From assembly GCA_045537855.1 (NCBI GenBank), contig JAZSQG010000215.1:1-36452 (forward strand): a DNA stretch of 36,452 bases, given 5' to 3'. Under the pieces are notes generated by a model, which was not told the DNA's origin, made no database searches, and worked only from the letters and a program-made list of their open reading frames with translations. Numbering within the stretch: position 1 is the stretch's first letter; each line of letters opens with the position of its first letter. Shown here piece after piece: positions 6,781 through 34,410 of the stretch. The DNA comes from Oscillospiraceae bacterium. GTDB lineage: Bacteria; Bacillota; Clostridia; Oscillospirales; Oscillospiraceae. The translations under genes and the position numbers were made by a program.

Positions 6781-6834
6781 TCACCGCAGAAAAGGAAAAA
6801 CAGGAAATCGTCGAAGGGGGAGGCTTTGACTCTC

Positions 6835-6868: not shown

Positions 6869-6897
6869 AAACTCATATTGAAACTGGAGATAAGATC

Positions 6898-10185: not shown

Positions 10186-10210
10186 AGGTTCCGCCGGTGG
10201 GGAGGAGTAC

Positions 10211-10244
10211 AAAAAAGGAAGCCCCGCCAAATGTCGGTACTTCC
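10211..10244 (-). terminator. Probable terminator after hppA
   Basis: On the minus strand, GGAAGTACCGAC-ATTT-GGCGGGGCTTCC (10 of 12 pairs including one G-U) followed by TTTTTTG, 18 nt after the stop. Confidence 0.55.
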
Positions 10245-10261
10245 TGCAGATCACATTCGGT

Positions 10262-12379: not shown

Positions 12380-12431
12380 TGCTCTGTTCTCACTCCTGTT
12401 ATGTATTTTTGTGGGTAAAGCAGCATTGAAA

Positions 12432-12574: not shown

Positions 12575-12910
12575 ATGGCTTTGAAAGAGCGCGTATTTGT
12601 GGACAAGACCGAGATCGTCGCGGGTATCGTGATGGGTAATTCCGCCACTCGCATCAGCATCAAGGCGGAGGACATTGCCGAAGTGTCTGTTTCCGCAATG
12701 CCGGTCAAGAAGCTTTTCAAGACGACCATGCGGGAGATGATTGCATTCAAGATGAAGAAGTCCCCCATGCCCACCGTCATCATGCAGGAAAAGAGCGATG
12801 CAAAGTATTGGGATGGCTACAAGACCCAGATCGAGTCCTTCTGCAAGAAGAACCGCATCGGCTACACGGACATGACCAAGATGCCCGCGCCCCCCACGCC
12901 TGCCGAATAA
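12575..12910 (+). CDS. Hypothetical 111-aa cytoplasmic protein
   Basis: GGGAGGAA RBS 8 nt upstream. Normal amino-acid composition (Lys/Met/Ile-rich, unlike the antisense shadow ORFs). Has its own promoter and terminator. I recognise no family. Confidence 0.65.
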   Translation: MALKERVFVDKTEIVAGIVMGNSATRISIKAEDIAEVSVSAMPVKKLFKTTMREMIAFKMKKSPMPTVIMQEKSDAKYWDGYKTQIESFCKKNRIGYTDMTKMPAPPTPAE

Positions 12911-12938
12911 GCAGAAGACCGGGTACATCCGAAAAACG

Positions 12939-12978
12939 GAGACGCCGCAAGAGTTTGACTTTTGCGGCGTCTCTTTTT
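12939..12978. terminator. Bidirectional terminator between the orphan gene and pepT
   Basis: GAGACGCCGCAA - 11-nt loop - TTGCGGCGTCTC, followed by TTTTTG on plus and CGTTTTTCGG on minus. Confidence 0.85.
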
Positions 12979-12987
12979 GTGTGCTTT

Positions 12988-14214
12988 TTATTTCACGTGC
13001 AGGCGGCAGATGGCAACCAGCAACTCCACGATCCTGCGCATTTCGGGTACGGACGCGTACTCAAAGCGTCCGTGGCAGTTGCGCCCTCCGGTGCAGAGGT
13101 TGGGGCAGGGCAGCCCCATGTAGGAGAGGCTGGCCCCGTCGGTGCCGCCCCGGATGGGGCTGATGACGGGCCGGATGCCCAGACTGAGCATGGCTTCTTT
13201 GGCCACATCCACCACTTCCATATGGGGGATGACATATTCCTTCATATTGAAGTAGCTGTCCTCCACCTCGGCTTCGAAGGAACCGGCACCGTATTTCCCG
13301 TTCAGATAATCGGCGATGAGGCGGAAGCGCTCCTTCTTGGCTTCGAACTTCTCCCTGTCATGGTCCCGGATGATGTAGAAGGCGGTGCAGGTCTCCACAT
13401 CGCCCTGGATATGTCCCAGGTGGTAGAAGCCTTCATAGCCTTCGGTGTACATGGGGTCTTCGTTGGGCGGCAGCATGGCCTGGAACTCCATGGCCATGAG
13501 CACGGCGTTTTTCATGACATTTTTGGCGCCGCCGGGATGGCTGCTGCGTCCGTGGACGGTGAGTTTGCCGGAAGCGGCGTTGAAGTTTTCGTATTCCATG
13601 CCGCCCAGGGGGCCGCCGTCCACCGTGTAGCCGAAGTCTGCGCCGAAGCCGGGTACGTCGAAATGGGCCACGCCCGCGCCCACCTCTTCGTCCGGGGTGA
13701 AGGCGATGCAGATTTTGCCGTGGGGGACTTCGGGATGGTTCAGCAGGTATTCCGCCATGGCCATGATCTCCGCCACGCCGGCTTTGTCGTCGGAGCCCAG
13801 CAGCGTGCTGCCATCGGTGACCACCAGCTCTTCGCCGATGCGGTTGTTCAGGTCGGGGAAGTCCCTGGGGCTGAGGACCCAGACACCGTCACCGCTGAGG
13901 TCAATGTCGCCGCCCTTATAATCCACGATACGGGGATTGACATTGTGGCCGCTCACTGCGTTGGAGGTGTCCATATGGGCGATAAAGCCCACTTTGGGGG
14001 CGCTTTTTCCCTCGGGCAGGTTTTCGGGAATGACCGCGTAGACATAGCAGTGTTCTTCATCCAGGCGGACCTGGGAAGCGCCCATATCCTCCAGTTCCCT
14101 TGCCAGAAGCCGGGCCAGGTCAAACTGCTGCTGCGTGCTGGGGGAAAGTCCGTTTGCTTCGGACGTGGTATCAATTTTCACATAGCGGAGAAAGCGGGAA
14201 ATGACGTCTTCCAT
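12988..14214 (-). CDS. pepT: Peptidase T (tripeptide aminopeptidase, M20B)
   Basis: Opening [18 protein letters not shown] and [30 protein letters not shown] match PepT. Start at 14214 is chosen for the GGAGG RBS 6 nt upstream and homolog-like N-terminus. The upstream ATG (MVKK, 14253) overlaps the predicted -10 box. Confidence 0.9.
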
Positions 14215-14254
14215 AATGACCTCCGGTTTTATGCGCCTGCGGCGTTTTTTAACC

Positions 14255-14283
14255 ATTATTTCTCTCCGCCTTTCCCTTGTCAA
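14255..14283 (-). promoter_or_regulatory. Sigma-A-type promoter for pepT
   Basis: On the minus strand, TTGACA - 17 nt - AATAAT. Confidence 0.6.
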
Positions 14284-14292
14284 GGCGAAAAG

Positions 14293-14321
14293 TTGACAAA
14301 GCCGCCCCGGAACCATAAAAT
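14293..14321 (+). promoter_or_regulatory. Sigma-A-type promoter for the M32 carboxypeptidase gene
   Basis: TTGACA - 17 nt - TAAAAT. GGGAGGA RBS 6 nt before the ATG at 14354. Confidence 0.6.
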
Positions 14322-14353
14322 GGAGAAAAATACGAACTCCGGGAGGACATGAC

Positions 14354-17844: not shown

Positions 17845-17981
17845 AATGATATAAAACTCCCGTTCTGCTTTCTCAATCCAGTAATATGCCGTGGGCTCCT
17901 GTGCTGTGACGGTTGAAAAGCGGGGAAAAGAATGATAAAATATTTTGTCACGCGAAAGGGCGGGCGGAAGGAGGAACAAGT

Positions 17982-19100
17982 ATGAAACGCATGACGGCCC
18001 TGCTGCTGTGTCTGGTGCTGCTGGCAGGCGTCTATTCCGTGGCGGCTGCCCCCGGCGGGGTGGATGACCCTCTCATCAGCCTTTCTTACCTCTATGATAC
18101 GCTGGTGCCCTATTTCCGGCAGCTCTTTTCCCGGGAAACACAGAAGAGTCTGGATGCCGTGGAGGAGCGGGTGGAACAAAGGCTGGAGCAGCTGGAATTT
18201 CCCGCTTTCCGTGACTGGGACTATGCGCCGGGCTTCACGCCTCTGGAGCTGGAGGATGGGGGAAGCGTCACGCTGGATGAATTCGGCTGCTTCCTGCTGC
18301 TGGAAGGCACCGTGAAGCTGCGCATTACAGCGGGAGAGGTCATTGATATCAGCACCGGCGAAGTCTGCACGGATGGGCAGCTTCTTCCGGCCATGCATCG
18401 CTATTTTGCCGCGGAAGAGAGCGGCGCGGTGCTGACGGTTTATTCTCCTTATGCGGAAGGCATGGTGGACGGTTTTTACCGCCACAGCGCCTCCGGCACC
18501 ATCCCCGTGCGGGAGCGCTTCCTGGATGTGGACAGCTCCCACTGGGCAGCGGAATATATCTGGAAGCTGGCGGAAGCCTCTGTGGTGAACGGCGTGGAGC
18601 CCCATCATTTTGCTCCCGGCGCCACCGTTACCCGGGGCACCTTTGTGACCATTCTGGGCCGACTCTGCGGCGTCTCTGCGGAGGATTGGAGCGAGCAGGT
18701 CTTTCCCGATGTGAAGCCGGAGGACTGGTTCGGGCCCTATGTATGCTGGGCAGCCGCAGGCGGCATCGTCACCGGCTATGATGACGGAAGCTTCCGTCCC
18801 AACGCGCCCATCAACCGGGAGCAGATGGCCCTGATGATGCAGCGCTATGCCGCCTATCTGGATGTGGAACCGGAAACCGTGAACGCGGAAGGGGAAGCCT
18901 ACCGCGATCTGGAGGAAGTCAGCGACTGGGCGCTGGAAGCGGTACTTCTCGCCCGGGATACCGGTCTGATGACGGGCCGGGAAGGAAATCTGTTTGAGCC
19001 TGCCGGTACCGCCAACCGCGCCGAGATCTGCACGGTGGCCTGGCGCTTTGCCGAAAAGACGGGCATTCTGGGAGAGGGAGATACAAATGGAGAGAAATGA
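17982..19100 (+). CDS. Secreted protein with three C-terminal S-layer homology (SLH) domains
   Basis: Signal peptide MKRMTALLLCLVLLAGVYSVAAA. Three SLH repeats: FLDVDSSHWAAEYIWKL..., FPDVKPEDWFGPYVCWA..., YRDLEEVSDWALEAVLLA.... GGAAGGAGGAA RBS. The N-terminal domain of about 170 aa is unassigned. Confidence 0.85.
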   Translation: MKRMTALLLCLVLLAGVYSVAAAPGGVDDPLISLSYLYDTLVPYFRQLFSRETQKSLDAVEERVEQRLEQLEFPAFRDWDYAPGFTPLELEDGGSVTLDEFGCFLLLEGTVKLRITAGEVIDISTGEVCTDGQLLPAMHRYFAAEESGAVLTVYSPYAEGMVDGFYRHSASGTIPVRERFLDVDSSHWAAEYIWKLAEASVVNGVEPHHFAPGATVTRGTFVTILGRLCGVSAEDWSEQVFPDVKPEDWFGPYVCWAAAGGIVTGYDDGSFRPNAPINREQMALMMQRYAAYLDVEPETVNAEGEAYRDLEEVSDWALEAVLLARDTGLMTGREGNLFEPAGTANRAEICTVAWRFAEKTGILGEGDTNGEK

Positions 19101-20538: not shown

Positions 20539-21387
20539 TTATTCGGTGAAGTGTACGTGGCTTCCGATGTGGTCGATGCAGAAGCAGTGGTAGCCCGCGC
20601 AGCGGGAGCAGTAGCGGAATTCCAGCTGGGGATAATCCGTGTCCGTGCGGCCGCAGACGGCGCACTTGCGGCTGTAGCCCCGGGCCTGCTGCTGTTGCTG
20701 CTGCTGTCTGGCAGCCCGCTTGAAATTCACCGTACGGCGGGTGCTGCGGCCGAAGCGGCGGCTGAGGGCATCGATGAGCACATCCCCGCAGAAGAGAAAG
20801 TAGTTGAGGACTGCCACCAGAGGCAGCAGGGTCATCCCGCTGAACATGGAAAGCAGGAAGACGGCGGCTTCGAAATAGGCCAGCCATTTGATCTTGATGG
20901 GGATGAAGAAAAACAGAAGCACCCGGTTTTCCGGCCAGAGAGTGGCAAAGACGAAGAACATGGAGAGGTTGACATAATTTGATGTCAGATGCACGTTCCC
21001 GCTGCCGATGAAGTAGGCGATGAGGCCGTAGAGGATGGTAAGGAGCATGCCCAGCAGATAATAGACCGTGAATTTGCCCGTGCCCCATTCCCGCTCCAGT
21101 GCGTTTCCGATGAAGTAGTAAAAATACAGAAACAGCGCAAGGGAGATGAGATTATAGGAGCTGGGTACAAACACAAAGGTGATCAGACGCCATACTTGCC
21201 CCCGGAGCACCAGGGCGGGCTGAAAGGTCAGGTAGGAGAGGAAGGTGCCGCTCCGGTCCATCATCGTCAGGAGAAACACGGCGATGTTTCCCAGGATGAT
21301 GATCATCATCAGGCGGGAAATACCGAAATTGGGGTGCCGGTACAAAAAACGGTCCACCCGGTTCTGAAACTTTTGGATCAACTTCAT
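20539..21387 (-). CDS. Rhomboid-fold membrane protein (apparently non-catalytic) with poly-Gln linker and C-terminal Cys/His zinc-ribbon
   Basis: GQVWRLITFVFV and FIGNALEREWGTGKF match rhomboid TM2/L1 signatures. Six hydrophobic segments. C-terminus is CAVCG-x15-CSRC-x3-HCFC-x2-H-x3-H-x-H. GGAGG RBS. Confidence 0.7.
   Translation of the reverse strand: MKLIQKFQNRVDRFLYRHPNFGISRLMMIIILGNIAVFLLTMMDRSGTFLSYLTFQPALVLRGQVWRLITFVFVPSSYNLISLALFLYFYYFIGNALEREWGTGKFTVYYLLGMLLTILYGLIAYFIGSGNVHLTSNYVNLSMFFVFATLWPENRVLLFFFIPIKIKWLAYFEAAVFLLSMFSGMTLLPLVAVLNYFLFCGDVLIDALSRRFGRSTRRTVNFKRAARQQQQQQQARGYSRKCAVCGRTDTDYPQLEFRYCSRCAGYHCFCIDHIGSHVHFTE
20686..20706 (-). repeat. Trinucleotide (CAG/CAA)7 run encoding Q7
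   Basis: CTGCTGCTGTTGCTGCTGCTG on the plus strand. This encodes QQQQQQQ in the linker of the rhomboid-like protein. Confidence 0.9.
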
Positions 21388-21476: not shown

Positions 21477-21505
21477 TTTCCACGCAGAAAAGCATGTGAT
21501 ATAAT
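21477..21505 (+). promoter_or_regulatory. Sigma-A-type promoter upstream of rlmB
   Basis: TTTCCA - 17 nt - TATAAT with an extended -10 (TGaTATAAT). About 85-nt leader containing a small ATTCCC/GGGAAT hairpin. Confidence 0.5.
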
Positions 21506-21595: not shown

Positions 21596-22351
21596 ATGAA
21601 CGGAGAACGCACACCGGACGAGGGCCGGATCGAAGGGAAAAACGCAGTCATGGAAGCCCTGAAGGCGGGGCGTACTATTGACAAAGTCTATGTGGCCCGC
21701 GGTGAGCAGGACAAGCTGATGCGCTTCATCATCCAGAAGGCGAAGGCGGCGGGCGCGGTGGTTTCGGAAGTGGACCGGCGCAAGCTGGATTTCATGAGCC
21801 AGACCCATGCCCACCAGGGCGTCATCGCCGTGGCGGCCGTGCGGGAATACGCCACGGTGGAGTCCATTCTGGAGATCGCCCGGGAGCGGGGAGAAAAGCC
21901 CCTGGTGGTGATCTGTGACGAGATTTCCGACCCCCACAATCTGGGCGCCATCATCCGCACGGCGGAGACCGCCGGAGCTCACGGCGTGATCATTCCCAAG
22001 CATCGCAGTGCCGGTATCACCGCCATCGTGGAGAAGACCTCTGCCGGTGCGGTGGAGCATATGGCTGTGGCCCGGGTGGTGAATCTGGCTGCCGCCATCG
22101 AAAAGCTGAAAGCTGCCGGCGTCTGGGTCTTCGGGACCGCCGCGGAAGGGGACCGGGTCCTCTGGGATGCGGATTTCAAGGATGCTGCCGCCATCGTCAT
22201 CGGCTCCGAAGGCGAAGGGATGAGCCGGCTGACCCGGGAAAGCTGCGATTTCCTGGTGTCTATTCCCATGCACGGGAAAATTTCTTCCCTGAACGCGTCC
22301 AACGCTGCGGCTGTGGTGCTTTACGAAGCGGTGCGTCAGCGGAGCCTGTAA
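21596..22351 (+). CDS. rlmB: TrmH/SpoU-family 23S rRNA (guanosine-2'-O-)-methyltransferase RlmB (YacO-like)
   Basis: N-terminal substrate-binding opening GRIEGKNAVMEALKAGRTIDKVYV. SpoU motifs DEISDPHNLGAIIRTAE, IVIGSEGEGMSRL, IPMHGKISSLNASNAAAVVLYE. Confidence 0.85.
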   Translation: MNGERTPDEGRIEGKNAVMEALKAGRTIDKVYVARGEQDKLMRFIIQKAKAAGAVVSEVDRRKLDFMSQTHAHQGVIAVAAVREYATVESILEIARERGEKPLVVICDEISDPHNLGAIIRTAETAGAHGVIIPKHRSAGITAIVEKTSAGAVEHMAVARVVNLAAAIEKLKAAGVWVFGTAAEGDRVLWDADFKDAAAIVIGSEGEGMSRLTRESCDFLVSIPMHGKISSLNASNAAAVVLYEAVRQRSL

Positions 22352-22397: not shown

Positions 22398-24698
22398 ATG
22401 TCGGAGCGTGACCGCGAACAACTGAATCAGGCGGATGCTGCGGCAGAGGTGATCACCCTGGAATCCATCCTCTCCGAGTACAAGGCGGAGGCGTTTGTGA
22501 AAAACGAGCGCCGCCTTTCCAAGGAGGAGCTGGAAGCCAGGACCGAGGCCATCATCCGGGAAATGAAGGAGAGCCTGGAAGCGGAGGAGCGGGCTGCGAA
22601 TGCGCAGCAGTCTGCGCCGGAGTCGGAGGAAACCGCATCGGAGCAGGAGGAGAGTCCTGTCCTGCTGCCGCCCGAGGAGGGACGGGAGGAAGCGCCTGCC
22701 GCCGAAGCTGCTGCGGAAACCGCCGCGCCGCAGGCCGAAACGGTCCCTGCGGAAGCGGAAGACACCGAAGCTGCCGGGGAAGCGGAAGCGCCCGCCACGG
22801 TGGAAGAAGCGCAGGCTGAGGAAGCGTCCGAAGAAGCCGAAAGCGAAGCTGTGGCGGAAGAAGCCGGAGTGGAAGCGGAAGAACCCTTCCTGAATCCCAT
22901 TCTGGAGACTGCGCCTCAGGGAGTGGATGCACACACTGTATCGGGCAAAAGCTCCCGCCGCATGCGCAGGCGGGAGGCAAGGCGCCTCCGGGCCCGGCAG
23001 AAAGCGGCAGAAAAGGCCGCAGGAGCCGAGGCTGAAGCACAGGCTGCACCGGAACCGGCCCCGGAGCTCACAGCCCCGGAGGCGGCAAGGCTCTATTCTT
23101 CCGGCATTGCATCCCTTCGCCGGAGAACGCTGCTGGCCTTTGCCTTCAGCATTCTCATGGCACTCATTGTACTCATCGGAGAAAAGGGCGGCGCGCTGCC
23201 CGGTTTTCTCCGCAATCCCAACGGCCGCTGCGCCGCGCTGGTCATCGGGCAGCTGGCGGTGATGCTGCTGGGGGCTGATATTCTCATGAAGGGCGTGCTG
23301 GGTCTGTTTTCGGGACAGGCCGGTGCGGATACCCTGGCGGCTGTGGCCAATCTCTGCTGCCTGGTGGACGGGCTCCTCATTTTCCTGGGGAAGCGCCCGG
23401 CCCGGGGCGGTCCCTATGCCTGCGTCGCGGCAATGGTGCTGGCCTTCAACATGCTGGGCGAGCGTATGGGACGCAGTGCCTTCCGGGATATCCTGCGTAC
23501 CATGAAGGGCGCCAGGATCCCCACGGTGGTCACCGCCGAGGAGGACCTTGCCGACGAAGGGCTGGTGCTTTGTAAGCGGCTGGGCAGCGCCCGGGGTTTC
23601 CTTTCCAAGTGTATCGAGCCTGACCTTGCCAGCCGCCGCTATCATATACTTGCCCCGGCGCTTCTGGTGCTGGCTGCCGTACTTGCCCTGTTTGCTGTGA
23701 TGCTCAGCGGAGAAAAGGTGTTTTTCCACACCCTGGCGGCCCTCACCGTGGCGGCGGCGTCCATGACCTCCGCGCTGGTTTACAGGCGACCCTTCATGTT
23801 CATCGCCCGGCGCCTTGCCGCATCCGGCGCGGTTCTTGCCGGATGGTCCGGTGCCGAGGATGTGTACCGCTCCGTGGGTATGGTGGTGCGGGATCTGGAC
23901 CTGTTTCCGGAGCATACCATCCAGCTCAACGGGATGAAGGTGCTTTCCGGCGCGCCTGTGGAAAAAGTCATTTCCTATGCGGGCAGCATGATCCAGGCCT
24001 CCAATTCCGGCCTGAAGCGCAGCTTCGGGGAATTGATGCGCCAGTACGCCGTGCCCACCTACCATACCGAGGAATTCAACTGCTCCACCGAGGGCGGCAT
24101 CAGTGCCTTCATCGGGCAGGATCTTGTGATGCTGGGTTCCGCTGCCTATATGAATCTCATGGGCATCCGCGTCCCCGGTACGGGGGATGTGGCCGGTGCG
24201 GTGTATATTGCCGTCAACCGGGAGCTCAGCGGCATTTTCATTGTCAATTATACCCCGGTGGATATGGTGCAAAACGCCCTGATCAATCTGCTGCGCTCCA
24301 AAGTCCGGCCGATTTTCGCAGTGCGTGACTTTAACGTGAATCCGGCTATGCTGAAAACGAAGTTCAAGCTGGGCAGCCGGGAGATCCGCTTCCTGCCCAT
24401 GGAGGACCGCTATCAGCTCAGCGTGGACAGCGAAAGCGAGGCGGTGCCCACTGCCCTGATGACCCGGGAGGGTCTGGGCCATTATGTGGAGATCGCCCGG
24501 AGCGGCAGACGGCTGGTGCGTGCGGTGCGCAGAGGGCTGCGCTTCACGGTTCTGGGCAGCCTTGTGGGCATGCTTCTGATTTTCCTTGCCTGCGCCAGGG
24601 GCGCGTTCATGGCCGCAAGCGCCGGGAATTTGCTGCTCTTCATGCTCCTCTGGGCACTGGCTGTGATCCTCATCGCCGATGGGGCGGAGGGTGACTGA
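22398..24698 (+). CDS. Degenerate P-type (P1B-like) ATPase homolog with long acidic N-terminal region; predicted non-catalytic membrane protein
   Basis: 766 aa. The first ~230 aa are Glu/Ala-rich low complexity followed by a basic patch (RRMRRREARRLRARQK). About 8 hydrophobic helices in the P1B arrangement. GADTLAAVANL resembles the MDTLIALG helix. Expected catalytic motifs are replaced (RDLDLFPEHT for DKTGTLT, AAASMTS for CPC, VRDFNVNPAML for the TGDN/GDGxNDxP type). ATG at 22398 (AGGTGA RBS) is preferred over the TTG at 22374. Confidence 0.6.
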   Translation: MSERDREQLNQADAAAEVITLESILSEYKAEAFVKNERRLSKEELEARTEAIIREMKESLEAEERAANAQQSAPESEETASEQEESPVLLPPEEGREEAPAAEAAAETAAPQAETVPAEAEDTEAAGEAEAPATVEEAQAEEASEEAESEAVAEEAGVEAEEPFLNPILETAPQGVDAHTVSGKSSRRMRRREARRLRARQKAAEKAAGAEAEAQAAPEPAPELTAPEAARLYSSGIASLRRRTLLAFAFSILMALIVLIGEKGGALPGFLRNPNGRCAALVIGQLAVMLLGADILMKGVLGLFSGQAGADTLAAVANLCCLVDGLLIFLGKRPARGGPYACVAAMVLAFNMLGERMGRSAFRDILRTMKGARIPTVVTAEEDLADEGLVLCKRLGSARGFLSKCIEPDLASRRYHILAPALLVLAAVLALFAVMLSGEKVFFHTLAALTVAAASMTSALVYRRPFMFIARRLAASGAVLAGWSGAEDVYRSVGMVVRDLDLFPEHTIQLNGMKVLSGAPVEKVISYAGSMIQASNSGLKRSFGELMRQYAVPTYHTEEFNCSTEGGISAFIGQDLVMLGSAAYMNLMGIRVPGTGDVAGAVYIAVNRELSGIFIVNYTPVDMVQNALINLLRSKVRPIFAVRDFNVNPAMLKTKFKLGSREIRFLPMEDRYQLSVDSESEAVPTALMTREGLGHYVEIARSGRRLVRAVRRGLRFTVLGSLVGMLLIFLACARGAFMAASAGNLLLFMLLWALAVILIADGAEGD

Positions 24699-24734: not shown

Positions 24735-24763
24735 TTGTATTTTCAGCACGATTCGTTTATAAT
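24735..24763 (+). promoter_or_regulatory. Sigma-A-type promoter for the EF-G paralog
   Basis: TTGTAT - 17 nt - TATAAT, 40 nt upstream of the ATG at 24804. Confidence 0.6.
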
Positions 24764-24803: not shown

Positions 24804-26825
24804 ATGTCAGAGAAGATCCGCAATATTTGTCTGCTGGGACACGGCAGCACGGGCAAGACCAGTCTTGCAGAGAGCATCCTCTATGTCACCGGCATGACCG
24901 ACCGTCTGGGCAAGGTCGTGGAAGGCAACTCCATCTGCGACTATGACGCCGAAGAGGTCAAGCGGCAGATCAGTATTTCCACTGCCACCGTTTATGCAAA
25001 ATACCAGGGCGCCAAGATCAACATCCTGGACACCCCCGGTTTCTTCGATTTCGCCGGCGAAGTGCAGGAAGCCCTCCGCGTGGCCGATGCCGGCATCATC
25101 TGCGTTTCTGCCAAGGACGGCCTGAACGTGGGTGCCGAGAAGTCCTGGAAGAAGCTTGTCAGCGCCGGAAAGCCCCGCGCCATCTACGTTTCCAAGACCG
25201 ATGAAGAGCATGCCGACTTCAACCGCACCTACAACCAGCTGCGTGAGCGTTTCGGCAGCAGCGTTTCCGCTTTCACCATGCCTGTGGTGGAAGGCGAGAA
25301 GGTGACCGGCATTATCGATGTCATCACCAAGAAGGCTTATCACATCGACGGCGGCAAGCGCACCGAGATCCCCGTGCCCGCCGAATCCGCCGGCGTGCTG
25401 GATGAGATGTACGAGGTCCTGGCCGAGAACGCCGCTTCCACCAGCGAAGAGCTGATGGAGAAGTATCTCGAGACCATGGAACTGAGCCTGGAAGAGATCT
25501 ACGGCGCGCTGGGCGAAGGCATCGCCAACGGCGATATCTGCCCCGTGTTCTGCGGCTGCGCCATGACCGGTCTGGGCACCACCGTTCTGCTGGATGCCAT
25601 TGTCAACTACTTCCCCGGCCCCATGGAGCAGGGTGAGCCTGTTGATCCCAACGGCCCCGCCAGAGCCATCATCTATAAGACCATTTCCGACCAGTTCGGC
25701 AAGTTCTCCCTGTTCAAAGTCATTTCCGGCAAGGTCACCCCCGATATGACCCTGGTCAACGCCCGCAGCGGTGCCAACGAGAAGCTTGGCCACATCTATA
25801 TGATGCAGGGCAAGAAGAACGTGGAAGTGCAGGAGATCGGCTGCGGCGATTTCGGCGCTGTTGCCAAGCTCAGCGACTCCAAGACCGCCGATACCCTCTG
25901 TGCCGCCGGCAGCGTGGAAGCCGCCCCCGGCATCGAGTTCGCGGAACCTTGCTACTCCATGGCCATCGCCCCCAAGACCAAGGGTCAGGACGATAAGGTC
26001 GCGCAGGGTCTGGCCCGTCTGGGCGAAGAAGATCCCACCTTCACCGTGGTGAACAACGGCGAGACCAAGCAGATGGTCATCTCCGGCGCCGGCGACATCC
26101 ACCTGGATGTGCTCTGCTCCAAGCTGAAGAACAAGTTCGGCGTGGAAGTGGTCCTGGCTCCCGCCCGCGTGGCTTACCGCGAGAAGATCCGCAAGAAGTA
26201 CGAAGCCCACGGCCGTCACAAGAAGCAGACCGGCGGTCACGGCCAGTTTGCCGACGTCAAGATCCGCTTCGAGCCTCAGGAAGAGCAGGAAGAAATGATC
26301 TTCGCCGAAGAAGTGTTCGGCGGCAGCGTGCCCAAGAACTTCTTCCCCGCCGTGGAAAAGGGTCTGCGTGAGAACTGCGTCAAGGGTGTTCTTGCCGGCT
26401 ACCCCATGGTGTACCTGAAGGCCGTCCTGTACGATGGCGACTTCCATCCCGTTGACTCCTCCGAAATGGCGTTCAAGACCGCTGCCGGTCTGGCCTATAA
26501 AGAACTGGTCAACGCCAGCCCCGTGCTGCTGGAGCCCATCGGCACCCTCACCGTCACCATTCCCGACAACAATCTGGGCGACATCATGAGCGACATCAGC
26601 TCTAAGCGTCGCGGCACCGTGCTGGGCATGAACGCCAGCGAAGGTATGCAGATCGTTGAGGCGGAAGTGCCCATGGCCGAAATGTCCAGCTACACCATCG
26701 ACCTGCGCAGCATGACCCAGGGCCGCGGCTCCTTCACTCTGAAGTTTGCCCGCTACGAAGAGGCCCCCGGCATGGTCCAGCAGAAGATTATCGAGGAAGC
26801 CAAGGCCAACGCCGACAACGAGTAA
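24804..26825 (+). CDS. Elongation factor G paralog, EF-G2 type
   Basis: G1 GHGSTGKTS; G3 DTPGFFDF; G4 SKTD. KKQTGGHGQFADV and GYPMV..KAVLYDGDFHPVDSSEMAFKTAA are domain IV/V EF-G signatures. Collinear with Thermus EF-G-2 as I remember it. AAGGAGAGG RBS. Start at MSEKIRN. Confidence 0.9.
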   Translation: MSEKIRNICLLGHGSTGKTSLAESILYVTGMTDRLGKVVEGNSICDYDAEEVKRQISISTATVYAKYQGAKINILDTPGFFDFAGEVQEALRVADAGIICVSAKDGLNVGAEKSWKKLVSAGKPRAIYVSKTDEEHADFNRTYNQLRERFGSSVSAFTMPVVEGEKVTGIIDVITKKAYHIDGGKRTEIPVPAESAGVLDEMYEVLAENAASTSEELMEKYLETMELSLEEIYGALGEGIANGDICPVFCGCAMTGLGTTVLLDAIVNYFPGPMEQGEPVDPNGPARAIIYKTISDQFGKFSLFKVISGKVTPDMTLVNARSGANEKLGHIYMMQGKKNVEVQEIGCGDFGAVAKLSDSKTADTLCAAGSVEAAPGIEFAEPCYSMAIAPKTKGQDDKVAQGLARLGEEDPTFTVVNNGETKQMVISGAGDIHLDVLCSKLKNKFGVEVVLAPARVAYREKIRKKYEAHGRHKKQTGGHGQFADVKIRFEPQEEQEEMIFAEEVFGGSVPKNFFPAVEKGLRENCVKGVLAGYPMVYLKAVLYDGDFHPVDSSEMAFKTAAGLAYKELVNASPVLLEPIGTLTVTIPDNNLGDIMSDISSKRRGTVLGMNASEGMQIVEAEVPMAEMSSYTIDLRSMTQGRGSFTLKFARYEEAPGMVQQKIIEEAKANADNE

Positions 26826-26841: not shown

Positions 26842-26876
26842 CAGAGCCGGAAGCATCGCGCTTCCGGCTCTGTTTT
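26842..26876 (+). terminator. Rho-independent terminator after the EF-G paralog
   Basis: AGAGCCGGAAGC-ATCGC-GCTTCCGGCTCT followed by GTTTTTG. Confidence 0.85.
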
Positions 26877-28867: not shown

Positions 28868-29548
28868 ATGAGAGTACTGGCCGTAGATGACGAGAAACTG
28901 CTTGTCAAGGGAATCAAATTCAATCTCGAAAACGAAGGCTATGAAGTAGACGTGGCCTATGACGGAGAAGAAGCGGTCAACAAGGTCCGGGAAGGCGGCA
29001 TTGATCTGGTTATCATGGATCTGATGATGCCCAAAATGAACGGGCTGGATGCCTGTATGGAGATCCGCACCTTTTCCAAGGTGCCCATCATTATGCTGAC
29101 CGCCCGTAGTGAGGATACGGACAAGATCATCGGCTTTGAATACGGCGCCGATGACTATATCACCAAGCCCTTTAACATTCTGGAACTGAAAGCCCGGGTC
29201 CGCGCCCTGCTGCGCCGCAGCGGAAGCCAGGAGGCCGCACCGAAGGAAAGTGTCCTCACCAGCGGCACCGTGCGCATCGACACGGAGCGGCGCATGGCCT
29301 TCCGCCAGGATCAGGAGGTGGAGCTCACCGCCAAGGAATTTGACCTGGTGGAAATGCTGATGCGCAATCCCGGCAAGGTTTACAGCCGGGAAAAGCTGCT
29401 GCAGCTGGTTTGGGGCGGCGAATACCAGGGTGATATCCGCACGGTGGACGTGCATATCCGCAGACTTCGGGAGAAGCTGGAGCTGGAACCCGCTTCCCCG
29501 GTGAAGATCATGACCAAGTGGGGGGTCGGCTACTATTTCAAGGATTAA
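28868..29548 (+). CDS. OmpR/PhoB-family response regulator
   Basis: Receiver domain MRVLAVDDE...DLVIMDLMMPKMNG...MLTA. Winged-helix output LTAKEFDLVEMLMRNPGKVYSREKLL...VDVHIRRLREKL...TKWGVGYYF. Confidence 0.95.
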   Translation: MRVLAVDDEKLLVKGIKFNLENEGYEVDVAYDGEEAVNKVREGGIDLVIMDLMMPKMNGLDACMEIRTFSKVPIIMLTARSEDTDKIIGFEYGADDYITKPFNILELKARVRALLRRSGSQEAAPKESVLTSGTVRIDTERRMAFRQDQEVELTAKEFDLVEMLMRNPGKVYSREKLLQLVWGGEYQGDIRTVDVHIRRLREKLELEPASPVKIMTKWGVGYYFKD

Positions 29549-29564
29549 GCTGCGGAAGCTGCGG
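29547..29564 (+). repeat. Perfect 9-bp tandem duplication (AAGCTGCGG x2) at the RR/HK junction
   Basis: AAGCTGCGGAAGCTGCGG begins inside the RR stop codon. It encodes KLRKLR in the kinase frame. Confidence 0.9.
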
Positions 29565-30980
29565 ATCAAATACAGCTTACAGCTGAAATATGCTGTAAGC
29601 TATTTTGCCGTTATTCTGATTTGCCTTGTCTTCATCAACATTCTGCCGGTGGTCAGCTGCCGGGATCTGCTGATGGAGAGCAAGCACAGCGCTCTGCAGA
29701 ATCAGGCATCTCTGGTGGCTTCCTCCCTCTCGCCTCTGGGTGAGCTTCGGGCCGATGAGGTGAGAAAGGTCATGGAGCTGCTGGGAGATGTGAGTCTGGC
29801 GCGGGTACTGGTCACGGATGAGGAGGCGCGCATCGTCTACGATTCCGTGGATCACACCGGTACCTTGGATAAGTATGTCCTTTTTTCCGAAGTGATGCTG
29901 GCGCTGGAAGGGAAGAACGTGTTTCATGCCCGCCTGCAGGGTGGCGCCCTTGCCAGCAAGGCCTGCGTCCCGGTGGTCAGCCGCTCCGTTGTCATCGGAG
30001 CGGTCTATCTTTATGAATTTGACCGGGATCAGGCGGCCCTGGTGGATGATCTGCGTCTGAACCTCTGGCGCATTTCTCTGGGCGTCTGCGTCCTTGCCAT
30101 CCTCATGACCCTGGTGCTGGGCCTTCTGATGGGCGGCCGTCTGCGCAGCATTCTGGACGGCATCCGCAGCATCGGAGCGGGCAGGCTGGATACCCGCATC
30201 CGTCTCCGGGGCAGCGATGAACTGAAGCAGATCGGCGATGAGATCAATGCTTTGGCCGACCGCCTGGAGCGCACGGAGGCCATGCGTCAGCGCTTTGTTT
30301 CCGATGCGTCCCACGAACTGAAAACGCCACTTGCCGCCATCACCCTCCTTTCCGACAGTATCGTGCAGAATGATGGGATGGACCGGGCCACCATCCGGGA
30401 GTTTGTCTATGACATCGGCCGGGAGGCGGAGCGGCTGAGCCGCGTGACCCAGCGGCTGTTGGAGCTGACCCGCATCGAAAAGGGCGGCCGGGAGACCCGG
30501 GAAAAGGTGGATATGAAGCGGGTTTCCGCAGAGGCACTGAAAATGCTGCGCAGTTTGGCTCAGGAAAAAAACGTCGCGCTGGACAGCCGACTGGACGAGC
30601 GCTGCAGTATCTATGCCAACACGGACGATGTGCATCAGGTGGTATTCAACCTGGTGGAAAACGCCATTAAATACAATGTGCCTGGGGGGAAGGTCCAGGT
30701 CCTGCTCTATCGCCGGGAGGAAGAGGCGGTTTTCGTGGTGGACGATACGGGGGAAGGCGTGCCGGAAGAAAAGCTTCCTTATCTCTTCGACCGTTTCTTC
30801 CGGGTGGACGAATCCCGCACCGGGGAGCAGAGCGGCAGCGGACTGGGGCTTTCCATTGTCCGGGACACGGTGCTGAAGCATGGCGGCAGCGTGCATGCGG
30901 AAAACCGGGAAGCGGGCGGCATGCGTTTTACTGTGTGCTTCCCGCTGTACATTCCCCCGGAAGAGGAGGCGCGGCAATGA
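29550..30980 (+). CDS. Sensor histidine kinase (TM1 - extracytoplasmic domain - TM2 - HAMP - HisKA - HATPase)
   Basis: H-box FVSDASHELKTPL; N-box FNLVENAIKYN; G-boxes VDDTGEGV and GSGLGLSIV. TM2 ISLGVCVLAILMTLVLGLLMG plus HAMP. The first canonical start (GTG 29649) lies after TM1 (YFAVILICLVFINILPVV), which is encoded in-frame upstream. The start is therefore provisionally placed at CTG 29550 (AAGGA 5 nt upstream), so the start coordinate is uncertain. Confidence 0.85.
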   Translation: MRKLRIKYSLQLKYAVSYFAVILICLVFINILPVVSCRDLLMESKHSALQNQASLVASSLSPLGELRADEVRKVMELLGDVSLARVLVTDEEARIVYDSVDHTGTLDKYVLFSEVMLALEGKNVFHARLQGGALASKACVPVVSRSVVIGAVYLYEFDRDQAALVDDLRLNLWRISLGVCVLAILMTLVLGLLMGGRLRSILDGIRSIGAGRLDTRIRLRGSDELKQIGDEINALADRLERTEAMRQRFVSDASHELKTPLAAITLLSDSIVQNDGMDRATIREFVYDIGREAERLSRVTQRLLELTRIEKGGRETREKVDMKRVSAEALKMLRSLAQEKNVALDSRLDERCSIYANTDDVHQVVFNLVENAIKYNVPGGKVQVLLYRREEEAVFVVDDTGEGVPEEKLPYLFDRFFRVDESRTGEQSGSGLGLSIVRDTVLKHGGSVHAENREAGGMRFTVCFPLYIPPEEEARQ

Positions 30981-32272
30981 AAAAGCTCTGTGTGTTGCTT
31001 CTGACTCTCCTGCTTCTGACGGGATGCGCCGCCGGCACACAGCCGCCGGAGGGGGACTATCTGGAAGTGTATTACTGCCGCGCCGGGGAAGATGCCGCCG
31101 CAGGCAGCGCCATCGGCAAAGCCTATTACCAGCCGGAAGCGGACAGCGACCGCCTGCACCAGGCACTGACGCTGCTGATGCGCAGCCCGGAAGACAGCGC
31201 ACTTGTCAGCGCATTTCCCGCAGCTGTGCGCATAGAATCCTACAACATTCATGACGGGACCATCAGCGTGATCTTCAGCGATGGCTACAGTGAGATGAAA
31301 CCCTTCCGCAAAACGCTGGCCCGCTGCTGTCTGGTCCTGACACTTTGCCAGCTGGAAGAAGTGAGCAGCGTCAGCATTTATGAAGGCGAGAAGCTGTTGG
31401 AAGAGGGCCTTACCCAGGAGATCATGCTGCTGGAAAGCACGGGTGACAGCGAGTATCAGACGGAAATCACCCTCTGGTTCCCGGATGAAGAGGGGAAGTG
31501 CCTGGTGTCCCGGCGGCGGCAGCTGACCATTGCCCAGTTCAAGACTCTGGCGGAATATGCCGTGGAAGAACTGCTGCTGGGAGACCAGGGGAAGGGGGGA
31601 ATGAGTGCCCTGCCAGCGGGGACGCAGCTGCGCAGCATAAGGCTCAGCGACGGGCTCTGTACCGTGGACTTCTCCGAAGAGTTTCTGGCAGCCGGACCGA
31701 AAAGCGCCGCGGAAGAGCGGCTCAGCGTCTATGCGCTGGTCAATACCCTGACGGAGCTGAAAGGCGTGGAACGGGTCCTGATCACCGTGGAAGGGGAGCG
31801 CATCGGCAGCTATCTCCACATGGATCTTTCCCAGCCCCTCACCCGTACGGATGCCTTTTCCGCCGCGGAGCTCAGCAGCAGCGGCTGGTATACGGTGAAT
31901 CTCTATCTGAAGACCGCAGATGGGTTTCTCACGGCGGTTCCCCTGGCTCTGGAGCAGCCGGACATGGAACATGTGACGGAGCAGGCCCTGCGTATGCTCC
32001 TGGAGCAGGAGGAGACCTGGGGCTATCGCCGCAGTATCCCGAAGGGTACGGTGATGCTCAGCTGCCAGGTGGATGAACAGCGTGTCTGTACCGTGCAGCT
32101 CAGCCAGGAGTTTCTGGTGAGCAGCCGCAAGGAGCTGGAGCTTGCTGCGCAGGCCCTGGCAGCCACGGCCATTGACGCAGGTGATGTGAGTGCCGTCCGC
32201 ATTTTTGCCGGAGGCAACTATTACCTGAACGGAGAACTGATAGAAAAGGACAGTGAATTGATCGTTGACTGA
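30977..32272 (+). CDS. Lipoprotein with three GerMN (Germane)-like repeats
   Basis: Lipobox LLLLTGC-AAG. Three repeats of about 120 aa, each with the pattern LxxALxxLL...P.gt.l.s..i.dg...VdFS.ef, typical of GerM/GerMN domains. The ATG overlaps the kinase stop (ATGA). GAGGAGG RBS. Confidence 0.75.
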   Translation: MKKLCVLLLTLLLLTGCAAGTQPPEGDYLEVYYCRAGEDAAAGSAIGKAYYQPEADSDRLHQALTLLMRSPEDSALVSAFPAAVRIESYNIHDGTISVIFSDGYSEMKPFRKTLARCCLVLTLCQLEEVSSVSIYEGEKLLEEGLTQEIMLLESTGDSEYQTEITLWFPDEEGKCLVSRRRQLTIAQFKTLAEYAVEELLLGDQGKGGMSALPAGTQLRSIRLSDGLCTVDFSEEFLAAGPKSAAEERLSVYALVNTLTELKGVERVLITVEGERIGSYLHMDLSQPLTRTDAFSAAELSSSGWYTVNLYLKTADGFLTAVPLALEQPDMEHVTEQALRMLLEQEETWGYRRSIPKGTVMLSCQVDEQRVCTVQLSQEFLVSSRKELELAAQALAATAIDAGDVSAVRIFAGGNYYLNGELIEKDSELIVD

Positions 32273-32687
32273 GATTCGGAATTATTTCCGGCCGGAACCG
32301 GATGAAGGACAGATCCATGCCATGAGCAGTCTGGCTCTGGCCCATGTGGGTGACGCGGTCTACGGACTGCTGGTGCGCCTCTGGTTTACCATGCAGGGCG
32401 GTGAGCGGGCCGACCGGCTCCACAGCAGCGCCGTGAATATGGTGAATGCCGCCGCACAGGCCCGGGCGCTGCGGCGTATCCAGCCCCTGCTGACTCAGGA
32501 GGAGGCGGACGTCTGCCGTCGGGGCCGCAATGCAAAGGTGAATTCCGTGCCCCGCAATGCCCTGCGCAGCGACTATCATGAGGCGACCGCGCTGGAGGCG
32601 CTGATGGGATACCTGTATCTCAAGGGCTGCCAGGAGCGGATCAATGAACTCTTTGCCTGTATCGTGGAGGAGCAGCATGCCGATTGA
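32265..32687 (+). CDS. mrnC: Mini-ribonuclease III
   Basis: LALAHVGDAVYGLLVR, RRGRNAKVNSVPRNA and YHEATALEALMGYLYL match Mini-III (YazC). Start is uncertain: TTG 32265 overlaps the upstream stop, and ATG 32322 is the alternative. Confidence 0.85.
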   Translation: MTEIRNYFRPEPDEGQIHAMSSLALAHVGDAVYGLLVRLWFTMQGGERADRLHSSAVNMVNAAAQARALRRIQPLLTQEEADVCRRGRNAKVNSVPRNALRSDYHEATALEALMGYLYLKGCQERINELFACIVEEQHAD

Positions 32688-34410
32688 CGCACTGTTTTTG
32701 CACGCCGCAGCCGGGGAACTCCGGCGGAAGCTGCTTGGCAGCCGGGTGGATAAAATCCAGCAGCCGGAGCGGGATGTGCTGCTGCTGTCCCTGCGCGGGC
32801 CGGAAGGACCGGGGAAACTGCTCATCAGCGCCGGCAGCGGTACGGCGCGCCTGCACTACACCACCGGAGGACGGGAGAATCCGGCAGAGCCGCCCATGTT
32901 CTGCATGCTCCTGCGCAAGCACCTCAGCGGCGCCAGGATCCTTTCTCTGGAGCAGCCGGACTTTGAGCGGATGTATCTGTTGCGCTTTGCCTGCCTGGAT
33001 GAATTGGGCATGGCGTCGGAAAAGTGTCTGGCAGTGGAAATGCTGGGCAGGAATGCCAATCTCGTCCTCATTGACGGAGAGGGGCGCATTCTGGACTGCC
33101 TGCGGAAGGTGGATGCGGAGCAGTCACCCAAGCGGCAGCTGCTGCCCGGCCTCTTTTACCAACTGCCGCCGAAACCGGAAAAACCCGGTGCCTTTCAGGT
33201 GAGCCGGGAGGAGTTTCTGCGCCTCTATGCCCAGGCGGAGCCCACAAAGGCGGGGGACCGCTGGCTGGTGGAAACCTTCGGCGGGATTTCCCCGCTGCTG
33301 GCAAGAGAGCTTCTCTGCCGCGTATCCGGCAGCAGCGATGAAGCCCTGGGTAGGGTAGAGGCGGAAGCACTCTGGCAGGCCCTTGCCGCCCTGCGGGAGC
33401 AGGAAATGTTTCAGCCCGTGTTCCTGAAAAACGGGGAGAAGCCCTTTGACCTCTACTGCTTCCCCCTGCAGCAGTACGGCAGCGCCCTGAGCCAGGAACG
33501 CTGGGAGGATTTTTCCCGGCTGCTGGATGCCTACTACACGGAGCGGGAGAAGCTGGAGCGGCAGAATCAGCGGAGCCAGAACCTGGTGAAGCTGGTGAAA
33601 AACCGCCGGGACCGGGCCTCCCGGAAGCTGAACCTCCGGCTGGAGGAGCGAAGCGCCACGGCAAAGCGGGAAACCTGGCGGCAGTATGGCGACCTGATCA
33701 AAGCCAATATCTACCGCATGAAACGGGGCGAGGGCAGCCTGACGGCGGATAATTTCTACGATCCCAATGGGGGGCAGGTGACCATTCCTCTGGATGTGAA
33801 GCTGTCGCCCCAGCAGAATGCCGCCCGCTATTATAAGCTTTATACCAAGGCGAAAAATGCGGAAAAGGTCCTCTCGGGTCAGATTGAAGAGGCCCAGGCG
33901 GAGCTGGATTATCTGGAAAGCGTGCTGGAAGAGCTGCAGCGCGCTGCCGGGGAGCGGGATCTGGCGGAGATCCGCCAGGAACTTGTGAGCGAAGGCTATC
34001 TCCGGGAGCAGGGAGGAAAGAAGAAAAAGCAGGCTTCCGTGCAGCCCCTGCGCTACCGGGCTTCCACCGGGGAGACCATTCTGGTGGGTCGCAGCAACCT
34101 GCAGAATGACTGGCTCACCACCCGTTATGCAGACAAGCGCTGTTTCTGGCTCCATGTCCAGAAGACCCACGGTGCCCACGTGATCCTCCAGAGTGAAGAG
34201 GAAAACCCCGGGGCGCTGGAAGAAGCGGCCATGCTGGCTGCCTGGTATTCCCGGGGCAGGGAAAGCTCCAATGTGCCCGTGGACTATACCCGGGTGAAGA
34301 ATGTGAAGAAGCCGGCCGGGGCAAAGCCGGGCATGGTGATCTACACCGATTACCGCACCTTGTATGTGACCCCCGCCAAAGAGGCGGTGGAGGCCCTGGA
34401 AAAATTCTGA
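32677..34410 (+). CDS. rqcH: Ribosome quality-control factor RqcH (NFACT / FbpA-like, YloA)
   Basis: MPIDALFLHAAAGEL...SRVDKIQQPERDVLLL...LHYT NFACT-N opening. Central coiled coil. C-terminal NFACT-R block WLHVQKTHGAHVIL...AAWYS. GGAGGAG RBS. 11-nt overlap with mrnC. Confidence 0.9.
   Translation: MPIDALFLHAAAGELRRKLLGSRVDKIQQPERDVLLLSLRGPEGPGKLLISAGSGTARLHYTTGGRENPAEPPMFCMLLRKHLSGARILSLEQPDFERMYLLRFACLDELGMASEKCLAVEMLGRNANLVLIDGEGRILDCLRKVDAEQSPKRQLLPGLFYQLPPKPEKPGAFQVSREEFLRLYAQAEPTKAGDRWLVETFGGISPLLARELLCRVSGSSDEALGRVEAEALWQALAALREQEMFQPVFLKNGEKPFDLYCFPLQQYGSALSQERWEDFSRLLDAYYTEREKLERQNQRSQNLVKLVKNRRDRASRKLNLRLEERSATAKRETWRQYGDLIKANIYRMKRGEGSLTADNFYDPNGGQVTIPLDVKLSPQQNAARYYKLYTKAKNAEKVLSGQIEEAQAELDYLESVLEELQRAAGERDLAEIRQELVSEGYLREQGGKKKKQASVQPLRYRASTGETILVGRSNLQNDWLTTRYADKRCFWLHVQKTHGAHVILQSEEENPGALEEAAMLAAWYSRGRESSNVPVDYTRVKNVKKPAGAKPGMVIYTDYRTLYVTPAKEAVEALEKF

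Follow-up and report, generated by a model that had tools for sequence, protein, structure and literature searches.

The locus and the encoded protein

The stretch of DNA analyzed here, hereafter the window, comprises positions 1 to 36,452 of contig JAZSQG010000215.1 from an Oscillospiraceae bacterium (GenBank assembly GCA_045537855.1) and thus has a length of 36,452 nucleotides (nt). Between rlmB and a gene for an EF-G2-type translation factor, it carries on the forward strand an intact coding sequence (CDS) of 766 amino acids (aa) with a stop codon at 24696-24698, and the ATG at 22398 is preceded by an AGGTGA element graded as a good ribosome-binding site (RBS). The encoded protein, referred to here as a pseudo-P1B-ATPase, belongs by descent to the P1B lineage of heavy-metal pumps, and it works like no described P-type ATPase, a class of proteins defined by a phospho-aspartate cycle.

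A preliminary description of the gene, made from the sequence, had proposed about eight transmembrane (TM) helices with a large cytoplasmic domain between helices 6 and 7, and this topology is reproduced by both a Kyte-Doolittle scan and an AlphaFold2 (AF2) model. The model was built without templates from a multiple sequence alignment of 82 sequences and has a mean predicted local distance difference test (pLDDT) score of 84.8, exceeding 90 over residues ~190-760. TM helices 1-4 span residues 237-262, 274-304 (kinked), 310-329, and 341-369, and helices 5-8 span residues 410-437, 442-476 (broken at 455-459), 693-733, and 742-764. Helices 6 and 7 are separated by a cytoplasmic α/β domain of ~215 aa, while only ~40 aa, folded as a β-hairpin in the model, lie between helices 4 and 5. 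The first membrane helix is preceded by an Arg-rich helix (178-216) and a shorter one (226-234); pLDDT is 75 at residues 181-190 and rises to ~90 and above beyond them.

Descent from P1B pumps

Searches with the 766-aa protein as a single sequence against Pfam (E ≤ 10), NCBIfam, and the PDB (phmmer) gave no meaningful match, and Pfam searches with 25 relatives returned nothing consistent, only scattered noise. The resemblance to P1B pumps is detectable only through a family profile or through structure, not through single-sequence searches. When a family profile (A1) was searched against PDB sequences with hmmsearch, Legionella CopA ranked first (E 1.3e-3), matching in two collinear stretches that cover helices MA to M2 and the nucleotide-binding-like (N) domain, and the Cu-ATPase HMA4 followed at ranks 3 and 4 with E values of about 0.2. 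The same profile was compared by hhalign with a reference alignment of eight P1B pumps, consisting of Escherichia coli CopA and ZntA, SilP, CadA, and pumps from Sulfitobacter, Tsukamurella, Leuconostoc, and Moraxella. Here, the match reached a probability of 97.9 % and an E value of 4.5e-13 over 498 columns, extending from MA to M5. A comparison with the single CopA sequence was weak (22 %, E 9e-4), and the result is decisive only against the P1B alignment.

The structural comparison points to the same lineage. In a Foldseek search of the AF2 model against the PDB, ranks 1-14 were all P1B pumps, with CopA (4BBJ) first at E 1.8e-17, followed by ATP7B, ZntA, CadA, and HMA4, and only then by KdpB and the P2 and P3 pumps. 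Sequence identity to these matched pumps is 12-14 %. A second template-free AF2 model, made for the ~30 %-identical relative P0110, displayed the same order of secondary structure elements and gave the same Foldseek list. The overall P1B fold is present, with MA, MB, a core of M1-M6, and the phosphorylation (P) and N domains between M4 and M5. Since the profile and structure matches are significant, P1B-specific, and reproduced in a second model, a chance resemblance to P-type ATPases is excluded.

Pump motifs retained and lost

The motif map is based on the hhalign comparison with the eight P1B pumps and was checked in 80 genome orthologs and 140 representatives sharing at most 50 % mutual identity. 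Part of the P1B framework is retained. The 'MDTL' motif of M1 is kept, GADTLAAVANL being aligned to TMDTLVALGTG, and in the N domain, LGSAAYMNLMG is aligned to LLGNQALLNEQ of the pumps; both correspondences had been suggested in the preliminary description and are supported by the alignment. The helix break of M4 and the downstream Pro465 are preserved, with model helices at residues 442-454 and 460-476. In addition, the glycine framework of the N domain (G566, G567, and G580) is invariant or nearly so, as are R243 and G299 according to column counts, and the N domain contains the strongly conserved stretch GSxAFMNLMGIR.

The elements that a working pump requires are lost, namely DKTGT, the actuator (A) domain with its TGE motif, the metal ligands of M4 and M5, the ATP-contacting Glu and His of the N domain, TGDN except for its Asp, and GDGxNDxP, as is the heavy-metal-associated (HMA) domain. 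In P1B pumps, the A domain of ~120 aa lies between M2 and M3. Here, ~44 residues stand opposite ~118 A-domain residues of CopA, with TGE falling into the alignment gap, in agreement with the earlier estimate of an actuator loop of only about 45 aa. The remnant forms two strands in the AF2 model (376-385 and 388-395), and the same hairpin is found in the model of P0110. In M4, the CPC motif (C479/P480/C481) is aligned to M456-T457-S458, where the family displays F-S/T-A, and the Tyr-Asn ligands in M5 of CopA are replaced by G720-S721 (hhalign and column counts). The alignment stops before M6, the helix that carries the MxxSS ligands in pumps and in which N744 alone is moderately conserved here. 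In the N domain, the Glu position is occupied by I532, and SSHPL is aligned to S-N-S-G-L (ASGSGL in the family), the His position being S537 and never His.

The P domain is altered in the same way. VVFDKTGTLT is aligned without gaps to MVVRDLDLFP, and TGDN to V-R-D-F(N), with the Thr replaced and the Asp kept (R643 and D644 are invariant or nearly so). The Lys position of motif III is not conserved (R96/C13/S11/A8/T7 of the 140 representatives), and the GDGxNDxP segment is deleted, as seen from a 33-residue gap opposite VAMVGDGINDAPAL...AIET. TALMTREGL is aligned to the 'ADivLM' strand and continues ungapped into M5. Thus, the losses of DKTGTLT (to RDLDLFPEHT), CPC, and SEHP (to SNSG) listed in the preliminary description stand, as does its reading of TGDN as VRDF; its reading of GDGxNDxP as TREGL does not, the segment being deleted and TREGL belonging to the 'ADivLM' strand. 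The statement that every catalytic motif had been stripped was correct as to the losses yet slightly overstated, as the TGDN Asp (D644) is kept and the remodelled loop contains the invariant D499 and D501. None of the 80 orthologs and none of the 140 representatives has an Asp at 498, a His at 537, or CPC, TGE, or GDGxND at the homologous places.

Neither an HMA domain nor any other Pfam domain was found at E ≤ 10 in the protein, in the 25 relatives, or in 8 relatives with long N-termini, and the N-terminal 235 residues contain no Cys. This agrees with the earlier claim that the HMA/CxxC region is missing and that a Glu/Ala-rich acidic region followed by an Arg-rich patch takes its place, the composition of which was confirmed. 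Judged from the sequence, the Post-Albers transport cycle would be impossible for the pseudo-P1B-ATPase because there is no A domain with TGE, no Mg2+-binding motif IV, no ATP-binding His or Glu, and no metal ligands, a conclusion that leans on the established mechanism of P-type ATPases.

Distribution and selection

A word-index search identified 195 relatives, all of about 700-900 aa and annotated as 'hypothetical', with one named 'cation transport ATPase' by the Joint Genome Institute (JGI). An exhaustive search covering 1.84 billion representatives returned 3,751 clusters at 50 % identity with E ≤ 1e-3, and 1,601 with E ≤ 1e-30. Neither Pfam nor NCBIfam has a model for the family, and its members are annotated as 'hypothetical' because they are invisible to both. 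With one genome scanned per species, the gene was recovered from at least 171 species, almost all of which bear the label Oscillospiraceae or Clostridiales. Most carrier genomes are metagenome-assembled genomes (MAGs), yet cultured carriers include Sporobacter termitidis DSM 10068 and Papillibacter cinnamivorans DSM 12816. Three loci (L042, L082, and L089) come from bins labelled Bacteroidaceae, Escherichia coli, and Phascolarctobacterium but display an Oscillospiraceae-type gene with the usual neighbors, and these 'cleanbin' assemblies are most likely contaminated or mislabelled. The relative P0091 (842 aa) was considered as a functional fusion with an Na+/H+ exchanger (PF00999), as its N-terminal two thirds derive from the pseudo-P1B-ATPase family and the remainder is the C-terminal part of an exchanger. 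It was rejected as a probable assembly chimera, being found on a single contig with an abrupt junction inside the N domain.

Selection was estimated by the Nei-Gojobori method in 12 ortholog pairs. The ratio of nonsynonymous to synonymous substitution rates (dN/dS) was 0.03-0.14 overall and 0.008-0.07 in the headpiece, compared with 0.03-0.17 for residues 236-476 (MA to M4) and 0.035-0.20 in the N-terminal region, where it reaches its highest values. Conservation within the protein peaks in the altered motifs, and no homolog with DKTGT was found among the orthologs and representatives. Because strong purifying selection acts on the degenerate motifs, which are conserved in their own right, the family is repurposed and not a decaying copy of a pump, as the preliminary description had suggested when it said that the protein looks like a repurposed pseudo-ATPase. 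Going by its sequences, the family would be classed as pseudoenzymes in the operational sense, combining homology to enzymes, loss of catalytic residues, and purifying selection.

The remodelled phosphorylation loop

In place of DKTGT, the family displays the signature (T/S/K/R)-D-x-D-Φ-F-P. The position of the phospho-Asp corresponds to residue 498, which is T, S, K, or R and never D. The following D499, at the Lys position of DKTGT, is found in 80/80 orthologs and in 137/140 representatives, the other three having Glu, and D501, at the Gly position, is found in 80/80 and 140/140. A shift of the alignment by one residue would place D499 at the phospho-Asp position, yet the K, T, G, and T of DKTGT are absent either way. 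The secondary structure assigned by DSSP to both AF2 models fits the hhalign register, with a strand, one residue, and then a helical turn formed by D-x-D-Φ. The invariant D499-x-D501 resembles the D-x-D of motif I of the haloacid dehalogenase (HAD) superfamily but, by alignment and DSSP, would lie one residue past the nucleophile position.

Conservation is strongest in the headpiece. Of the 35 positions conserved to at least 95 %, 23 are in the P/N headpiece and 7 in the eight membrane helices, and none is at the canonical ion site (CPC of M4 and Tyr-Asn of M5). In the P-type fold, the D499/D501 loop is inferred from alignment and model to lie close to the invariant pairs R643-D644 and R690-E691. 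A candidate signature for the family as a whole reads AGWxGA...(T/S)DxDΦFP...ASGSGL...GSxAFMNLMGIR...FAVRDFN...REG.

The N-terminal motif and the polyacidic linker

The N-terminus begins with a conserved motif of ~45 residues with the consensus SLESILAEYKGxAFIxGEKRTPKExLxEQAExI, the core of which is found in 114/140 representatives. In the AF2 model, this region contains helices at residues 21-34 and 42-70. The motif has no relative in Pfam, and a profile search against the PDB gave eIF4G as the best match (E 0.016), which is confined to a short helix and not significant. A role as an anti-sigma or cell-division adaptor was considered for the N-terminus and rejected, since the gene has no sigma factor or division gene as a regular neighbor.

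The motif is followed by a linker predicted to be disordered (pLDDT <50), in which residues 61-165 consist of 32 % Glu and 29 % Ala and carry a net charge of -33. Across the family, the linker ranges from 91 to 874 aa (median 192) with a median net charge of -26.5, and its sequence is not conserved. Some relatives have repeat-built N-terminal extensions of 600-800 aa, as in P0260 (1,528 aa) and P0202 (1,245 aa). The extension of P0260 consists of 'EPVGASSARPLSTDAP' units and repeated amphipathic 'GFFAKLAGMVTGLFAG' segments, together with acidic-hydrophobic 'DDILFEF/EDILLFM' peptide repeats similar to the conserved N-terminal motif, and that of P0202 of Tyr/Asp/Glu-rich repeats. In the 8 relatives with long N-terminal extensions (up to 1,528 aa), only low-complexity repeats and no Pfam domain were found.

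Gene neighborhood

The neighboring genes had been named in the preliminary description as rlmB and an EF-G2 paralog, and NCBIfam and Pfam matches as well as synteny agree with both assignments (Table 1). In all 77 loci that could be tested (77/77), rlmB is the gene immediately upstream and has the same orientation. In the window, 46 nt separate its stop codon from the start of the pseudo-P1B-ATPase gene, with no strong terminator-like site between them, and across loci the median distance from the rlmB stop codon to the N-terminal motif is 101 nt. Downstream, an EF-G-family translational GTPase is found in 61/67 loci, at a median distance of 129 nt from the pseudo-P1B-ATPase stop codon. In a consensus scan, rlmB was found to be preceded by a promoter-like site and the EF-G gene to be followed by a strong terminator-like hairpin, with no comparable site between rlmB, the pseudo-P1B-ATPase gene, and the EF-G gene. 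From this arrangement, the pseudo-P1B-ATPase gene is probably co-transcribed with rlmB. A search of the whole window against Rfam gave no match, and therefore no known leader or riboswitch is present.

Table 1 Coordinates of the pseudo-P1B-ATPase gene, its segments, and flanking features in the window.
Feature	Position	Strand	Basis
Promoter-like site 5' of rlmB, TTTCCA-17-TATAAT with TG	21477-21505	+	Consensus scan only
rlmB, 23S rRNA Gm2251 2'-O-methyltransferase	21596-22351	+	TIGR00186, 241 bits (cutoff 160); Pfam SpoU domains
Pseudo-P1B-ATPase, complete CDS	22398-24698	+	Open reading frame (ORF) list, RBS, family matches
Conserved N-terminal helical motif (aa 17-60)	22446-22577	+	Alignments A1 and A4; model
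Polyacidic disordered linker (aa 61-175)	22578-22922	+	Composition, pLDDT
Arg-rich helix and pre-MA segment (aa 176-236), cytoplasmic side	22923-23105	+	Composition, model
Membrane helices MA, MB (Gly299 kink), M1 (GADTL = MDTL), and M2	23106-23504	+	hhalign, model
A-domain remnant (aa 370-409), β-hairpin, TGE segment deleted	23505-23624	+	hhalign, models
M3 and M4 (aa 410-476), CPC replaced by M-T-S, helix break and Pro465 kept	23625-23825	+	hhalign, model
P domain, N-terminal half (aa 477-515), AGWxGA motif and loop R498-D499-L500-D501-L502-F503-P504	23826-23942	+	hhalign, column counts
N (nucleotide-binding-like) domain (aa 516-620), GSAAFMNLMGIR motif present	23943-24257	+	PDB profile, hhalign, column counts
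P domain, C-terminal half (aa 621-692), R690-E691-G692 motif present	24258-24473	+	hhalign, column counts
M5 and M6 (aa 693-766)	24474-24695	+	hhalign to Q724, model, column counts
Putative separate promoter of the EF-G gene, TTGTAT-17-TATAAT	24735-24763	+	By eye
EF-G2-type paralog	24804-26825	+	NCBIfam and Pfam matches
Intrinsic-terminator-like hairpin after the EF-G paralog, strong	26842-26872	+	13-bp stem, 9 GC pairs, T-run

The EF-G paralog scores above the cutoff for NCBIfam NF009381 and below the EF-G equivalog cutoff. It lacks the catalytic His of switch II, with DTPGFFDF instead of DTPGHVDF, and in 52/52 syntenic loci (among L011-L090) DTPG is followed by Y, F, A, or G and never by H. 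Its G1 motif reads GHGSTGKTS, and its G4 motif SKTD instead of NKxD. A G1 motif beginning with Gly has been reported for EF-G2-type factors (PMC12172202), a feature that the paralog shares. By these motifs, the paralog is probably an EF-G2-type factor deficient in GTPase activity. Even members that are only ~30-37 % identical are flanked by these genes, with citrate synthase and metK farther upstream also shared. Such shared flanks among distant members argue for vertical inheritance of the pseudo-P1B-ATPase gene as a core gene of Oscillospiraceae.

Other parts of the window were inspected as well. Divergently from rlmB, positions 20539-21387 on the reverse strand encode a 282-aa polytopic membrane protein, present in 48/80 related loci, with a poly-Gln run, a Cys/His-rich C-terminal tail, and a sub-threshold match to Rhomboid (PF01694, E 2e-4, 22.0 vs 22.6 bits). 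On the forward strand, four ORFs of 980, 750, 514, and 494 aa (3939-6878, 10166-12415, 12808-14349, and 2450-3931) have no Pfam match even at E 0.05. Either these ORFs encode novel proteins or the true genes lie on the other strand, as long antisense ORFs are found in this DNA of 60 % GC. Finally, ordinary chromosomal genes of a spore-forming Gram-positive-type cell are located at 28868-30977, 30935-32269, 32644-34407, and 17913-19097 on the forward strand, encoding an OmpR-type response regulator and a histidine kinase, a GerM (Germane) protein, RqcH (NFACT), and an SLH-domain protein.

Proposed function and alternatives

In our view, the protein is likely a functional, non-pumping pseudo-P1B-ATPase of a binding type. 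It would be a stand-alone descendant of P1B-type (Cu/Zn-class) pumps that acts by binding rather than by catalysis-driven transport, as the strongest purifying selection falls on the remodelled cleft between the N and P domains and not on the membrane helices. The membrane core would serve as an anchor and perhaps transmit a signal, whereas the former active-site cleft would form a pocket for a ligand or partner, probably closed by Arg-Asp salt bridges replacing the Mg-phosphate. With R643 at the phosphate-contact position of the TGD glycine, near D499 and D501, the cleft may plausibly be a pocket 'self-liganded' through salt bridges or else a new ligand site. The ~45-aa N-terminal motif on its polyanionic tether of 90-870 aa may act as a second, long-reach module that recruits a soluble partner. 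As RlmB and a His-less EF-G2-type factor adjoin the gene, it could tentatively be guessed that the partner or process is linked to the ribosome or to translation at the membrane, a weak suggestion that we would not expect to hold. The more specific idea that the protein is a receptor, with the N-P cleft and the polyacidic tether docking the His-less EF-G2-type factor, or ribosomes, at the membrane, is speculative and must be regarded as unlikely.

Several observations weigh against binding as the sole function, or against a link with the neighboring genes. We infer the Arg-Asp pairing and the exact register of D499 relative to the phospho-Asp from the alignment and DSSP only. An invariant D-x-D after β-strand 1 is a feature of HAD phosphatases, leaving some small chance of residual phosphoryl chemistry. 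The membrane helices are themselves under purifying selection, and the membrane part may exceed the role of an anchor. In addition, synteny confined to a single bacterial family may have been inherited and need not indicate a functional link, and the EF-G gene may be transcribed on its own from the putative promoter in the 105-nt spacer upstream of it, which escaped the consensus scan as its -35 hexamer, TTGTAT, matches at 3 of 6 positions.

The alternative that fares best is a HAD-type enzyme, which we hold to be improbable. Here, the register would be shifted by one residue, with D499 as the nucleophile and D501 as the D+2 general acid (DxDxT), and the headpiece would be a membrane-bound phosphatase or a donor-charged phospho-switch, without an A domain. 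D499 and D501 are indeed invariant or nearly so in 220 sequences and directly follow a hydrophobic β-strand in the most constrained part of the protein, while position 498 is mostly Thr or Ser, like the 'CSDKTGT' of P2 pumps. Moreover, the TGDN Asp (D644) is retained, and 90/140 representatives have E or D at 691. Yet the ungapped hhalign alignment, with which the DSSP assignments of both models agree, puts the phospho-Asp opposite residue 498, which is never D. Nor were HAD motifs II-IV found, as the Thr/Ser of motif II is replaced by Val, Ile, or Leu (Thr in 14/140), the Lys of motif III by R, S, T, or C, and motif IV with the Mg2+ ligands is deleted.

A slimmer chance is given to the membrane core as the functional part, acting as a passive channel or as a ligand-gated or secondary transporter regulated by the headpiece. 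The TM segments are conserved well above the linker, with entropies of 2.0-2.3 bits against 2.75-2.9 bits and the dN/dS of 0.03-0.17 given above; M4 retains its helix break where CPC used to be, and fair conservation is seen at D294, E311, and T/S312, close to the P1B entry site. However, no conserved polar or charged residue is found at the CPC positions of M4 or the Tyr-Asn positions of M5, and the membrane helices hold far fewer of the most conserved positions than the headpiece (7 against 23).

It is very unlikely that the protein is a cation buffer or sensor in which the polyanionic N-terminus binds divalent cations or polyamines at low affinity and the body reports on them. While the linker is net negative throughout the family and occupies the place of the N-terminal metal-binding domains of P1B pumps, it contains no Cys, His, or Met metal motifs, both its sequence and its length (91-874 aa) are unconstrained, its region has the highest dN/dS in the protein, and acidic disordered linkers are common spacers. 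Finally, the view that the resemblance is due to chance or that the gene is a pump in recent decay, for which the empty single-sequence searches and the 12-14 % identity to real pumps could be cited, is refuted by the P1B-specific hhalign (E 4.5e-13) and Foldseek (E 1.8e-17) matches and by thousands of full-length homologs with the same altered motifs and dN/dS far below 1.

Relation to known proteins and significance

The pseudo-P1B-ATPase resembles the P1B pumps (CopA, ATP7A/B, ZntA, CadA, and HMA4) in its eight helices with the P1B-specific MA and kinked MB, the 'MDTL' of M1, the broken M4 followed by Pro, the P and N domains between M4 and M5, the glycine framework and 'G..lM' motif of the N domain, and the Asp of TGDN. 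It differs from them in lacking the A domain with TGE, DKTGT, CPC, the Tyr-Asn pair, the N-domain Glu and His, the TGDN Thr, a conserved motif III Lys, and GDGxNDxP, and in having the HMA domain replaced by a helical N-terminal motif on a polyacidic disordered tether. As in HAD phosphatases, the core of its P domain is Rossmann-like and the first strand is followed at once by an invariant D-x-D, but motifs II, III, and IV are unmatched or deleted, and a residue other than Asp occupies the aligned nucleophile position.

Degenerate P-type modules have been described in two other settings. In the FUPA24 pumps (mycobacterial CtpH/CtpI; TC 3.A.3.24), a P-type-homologous N-terminal half persists without functional motifs (PMC3573892). 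However, this half is joined to an entire pump that is presumably active, and it keeps its A domain, whereas the pseudo-P1B-ATPase stands alone without an A domain and forms a large family of its own with invariant motifs. In the alveolate P4GC proteins (Plasmodium GC-beta, Cryptosporidium), a P-type module is an essential, non-transport part of a signalling protein, and alterations of the DKTGT Asp and the A-domain Glu in some lineages suggest a possible loss of ATPase activity (PMC13466520). These proteins are eukaryotic, of the P4 (flippase) type, and cyclase-fused with a well-folded A domain, while the pseudo-P1B-ATPase is bacterial, of P1B descent, and unfused, with its A domain deleted. 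Literature searches turned up no bacterial P-type ATPase described as a stand-alone pseudoenzyme or as inactive, and a 2023 review of the field in the Journal of Biological Chemistry (PMC10654040) does not mention such a protein.

The family is thus a candidate for a new Pfam/InterPro entry with a clean signature, and it offers a natural experiment on what the P-type scaffold is capable of without catalysis. The family is large and belongs to the core genes of Oscillospiraceae, a lineage prominent in gut and rumen, in which the two cultured carriers permit experiments, and its circumstantial link to the neighboring EF-G2-type factor, itself without the catalytic His, is testable. If the docking of this factor or of ribosomes were true, the pseudo-P1B-ATPases would constitute the first family of stand-alone pseudo-P-type ATPases in bacteria, the adjoining pair of 'dead NTPase' genes would act as a single functional module, and the state of translation would be coupled to the envelope in dominant gut anaerobes.

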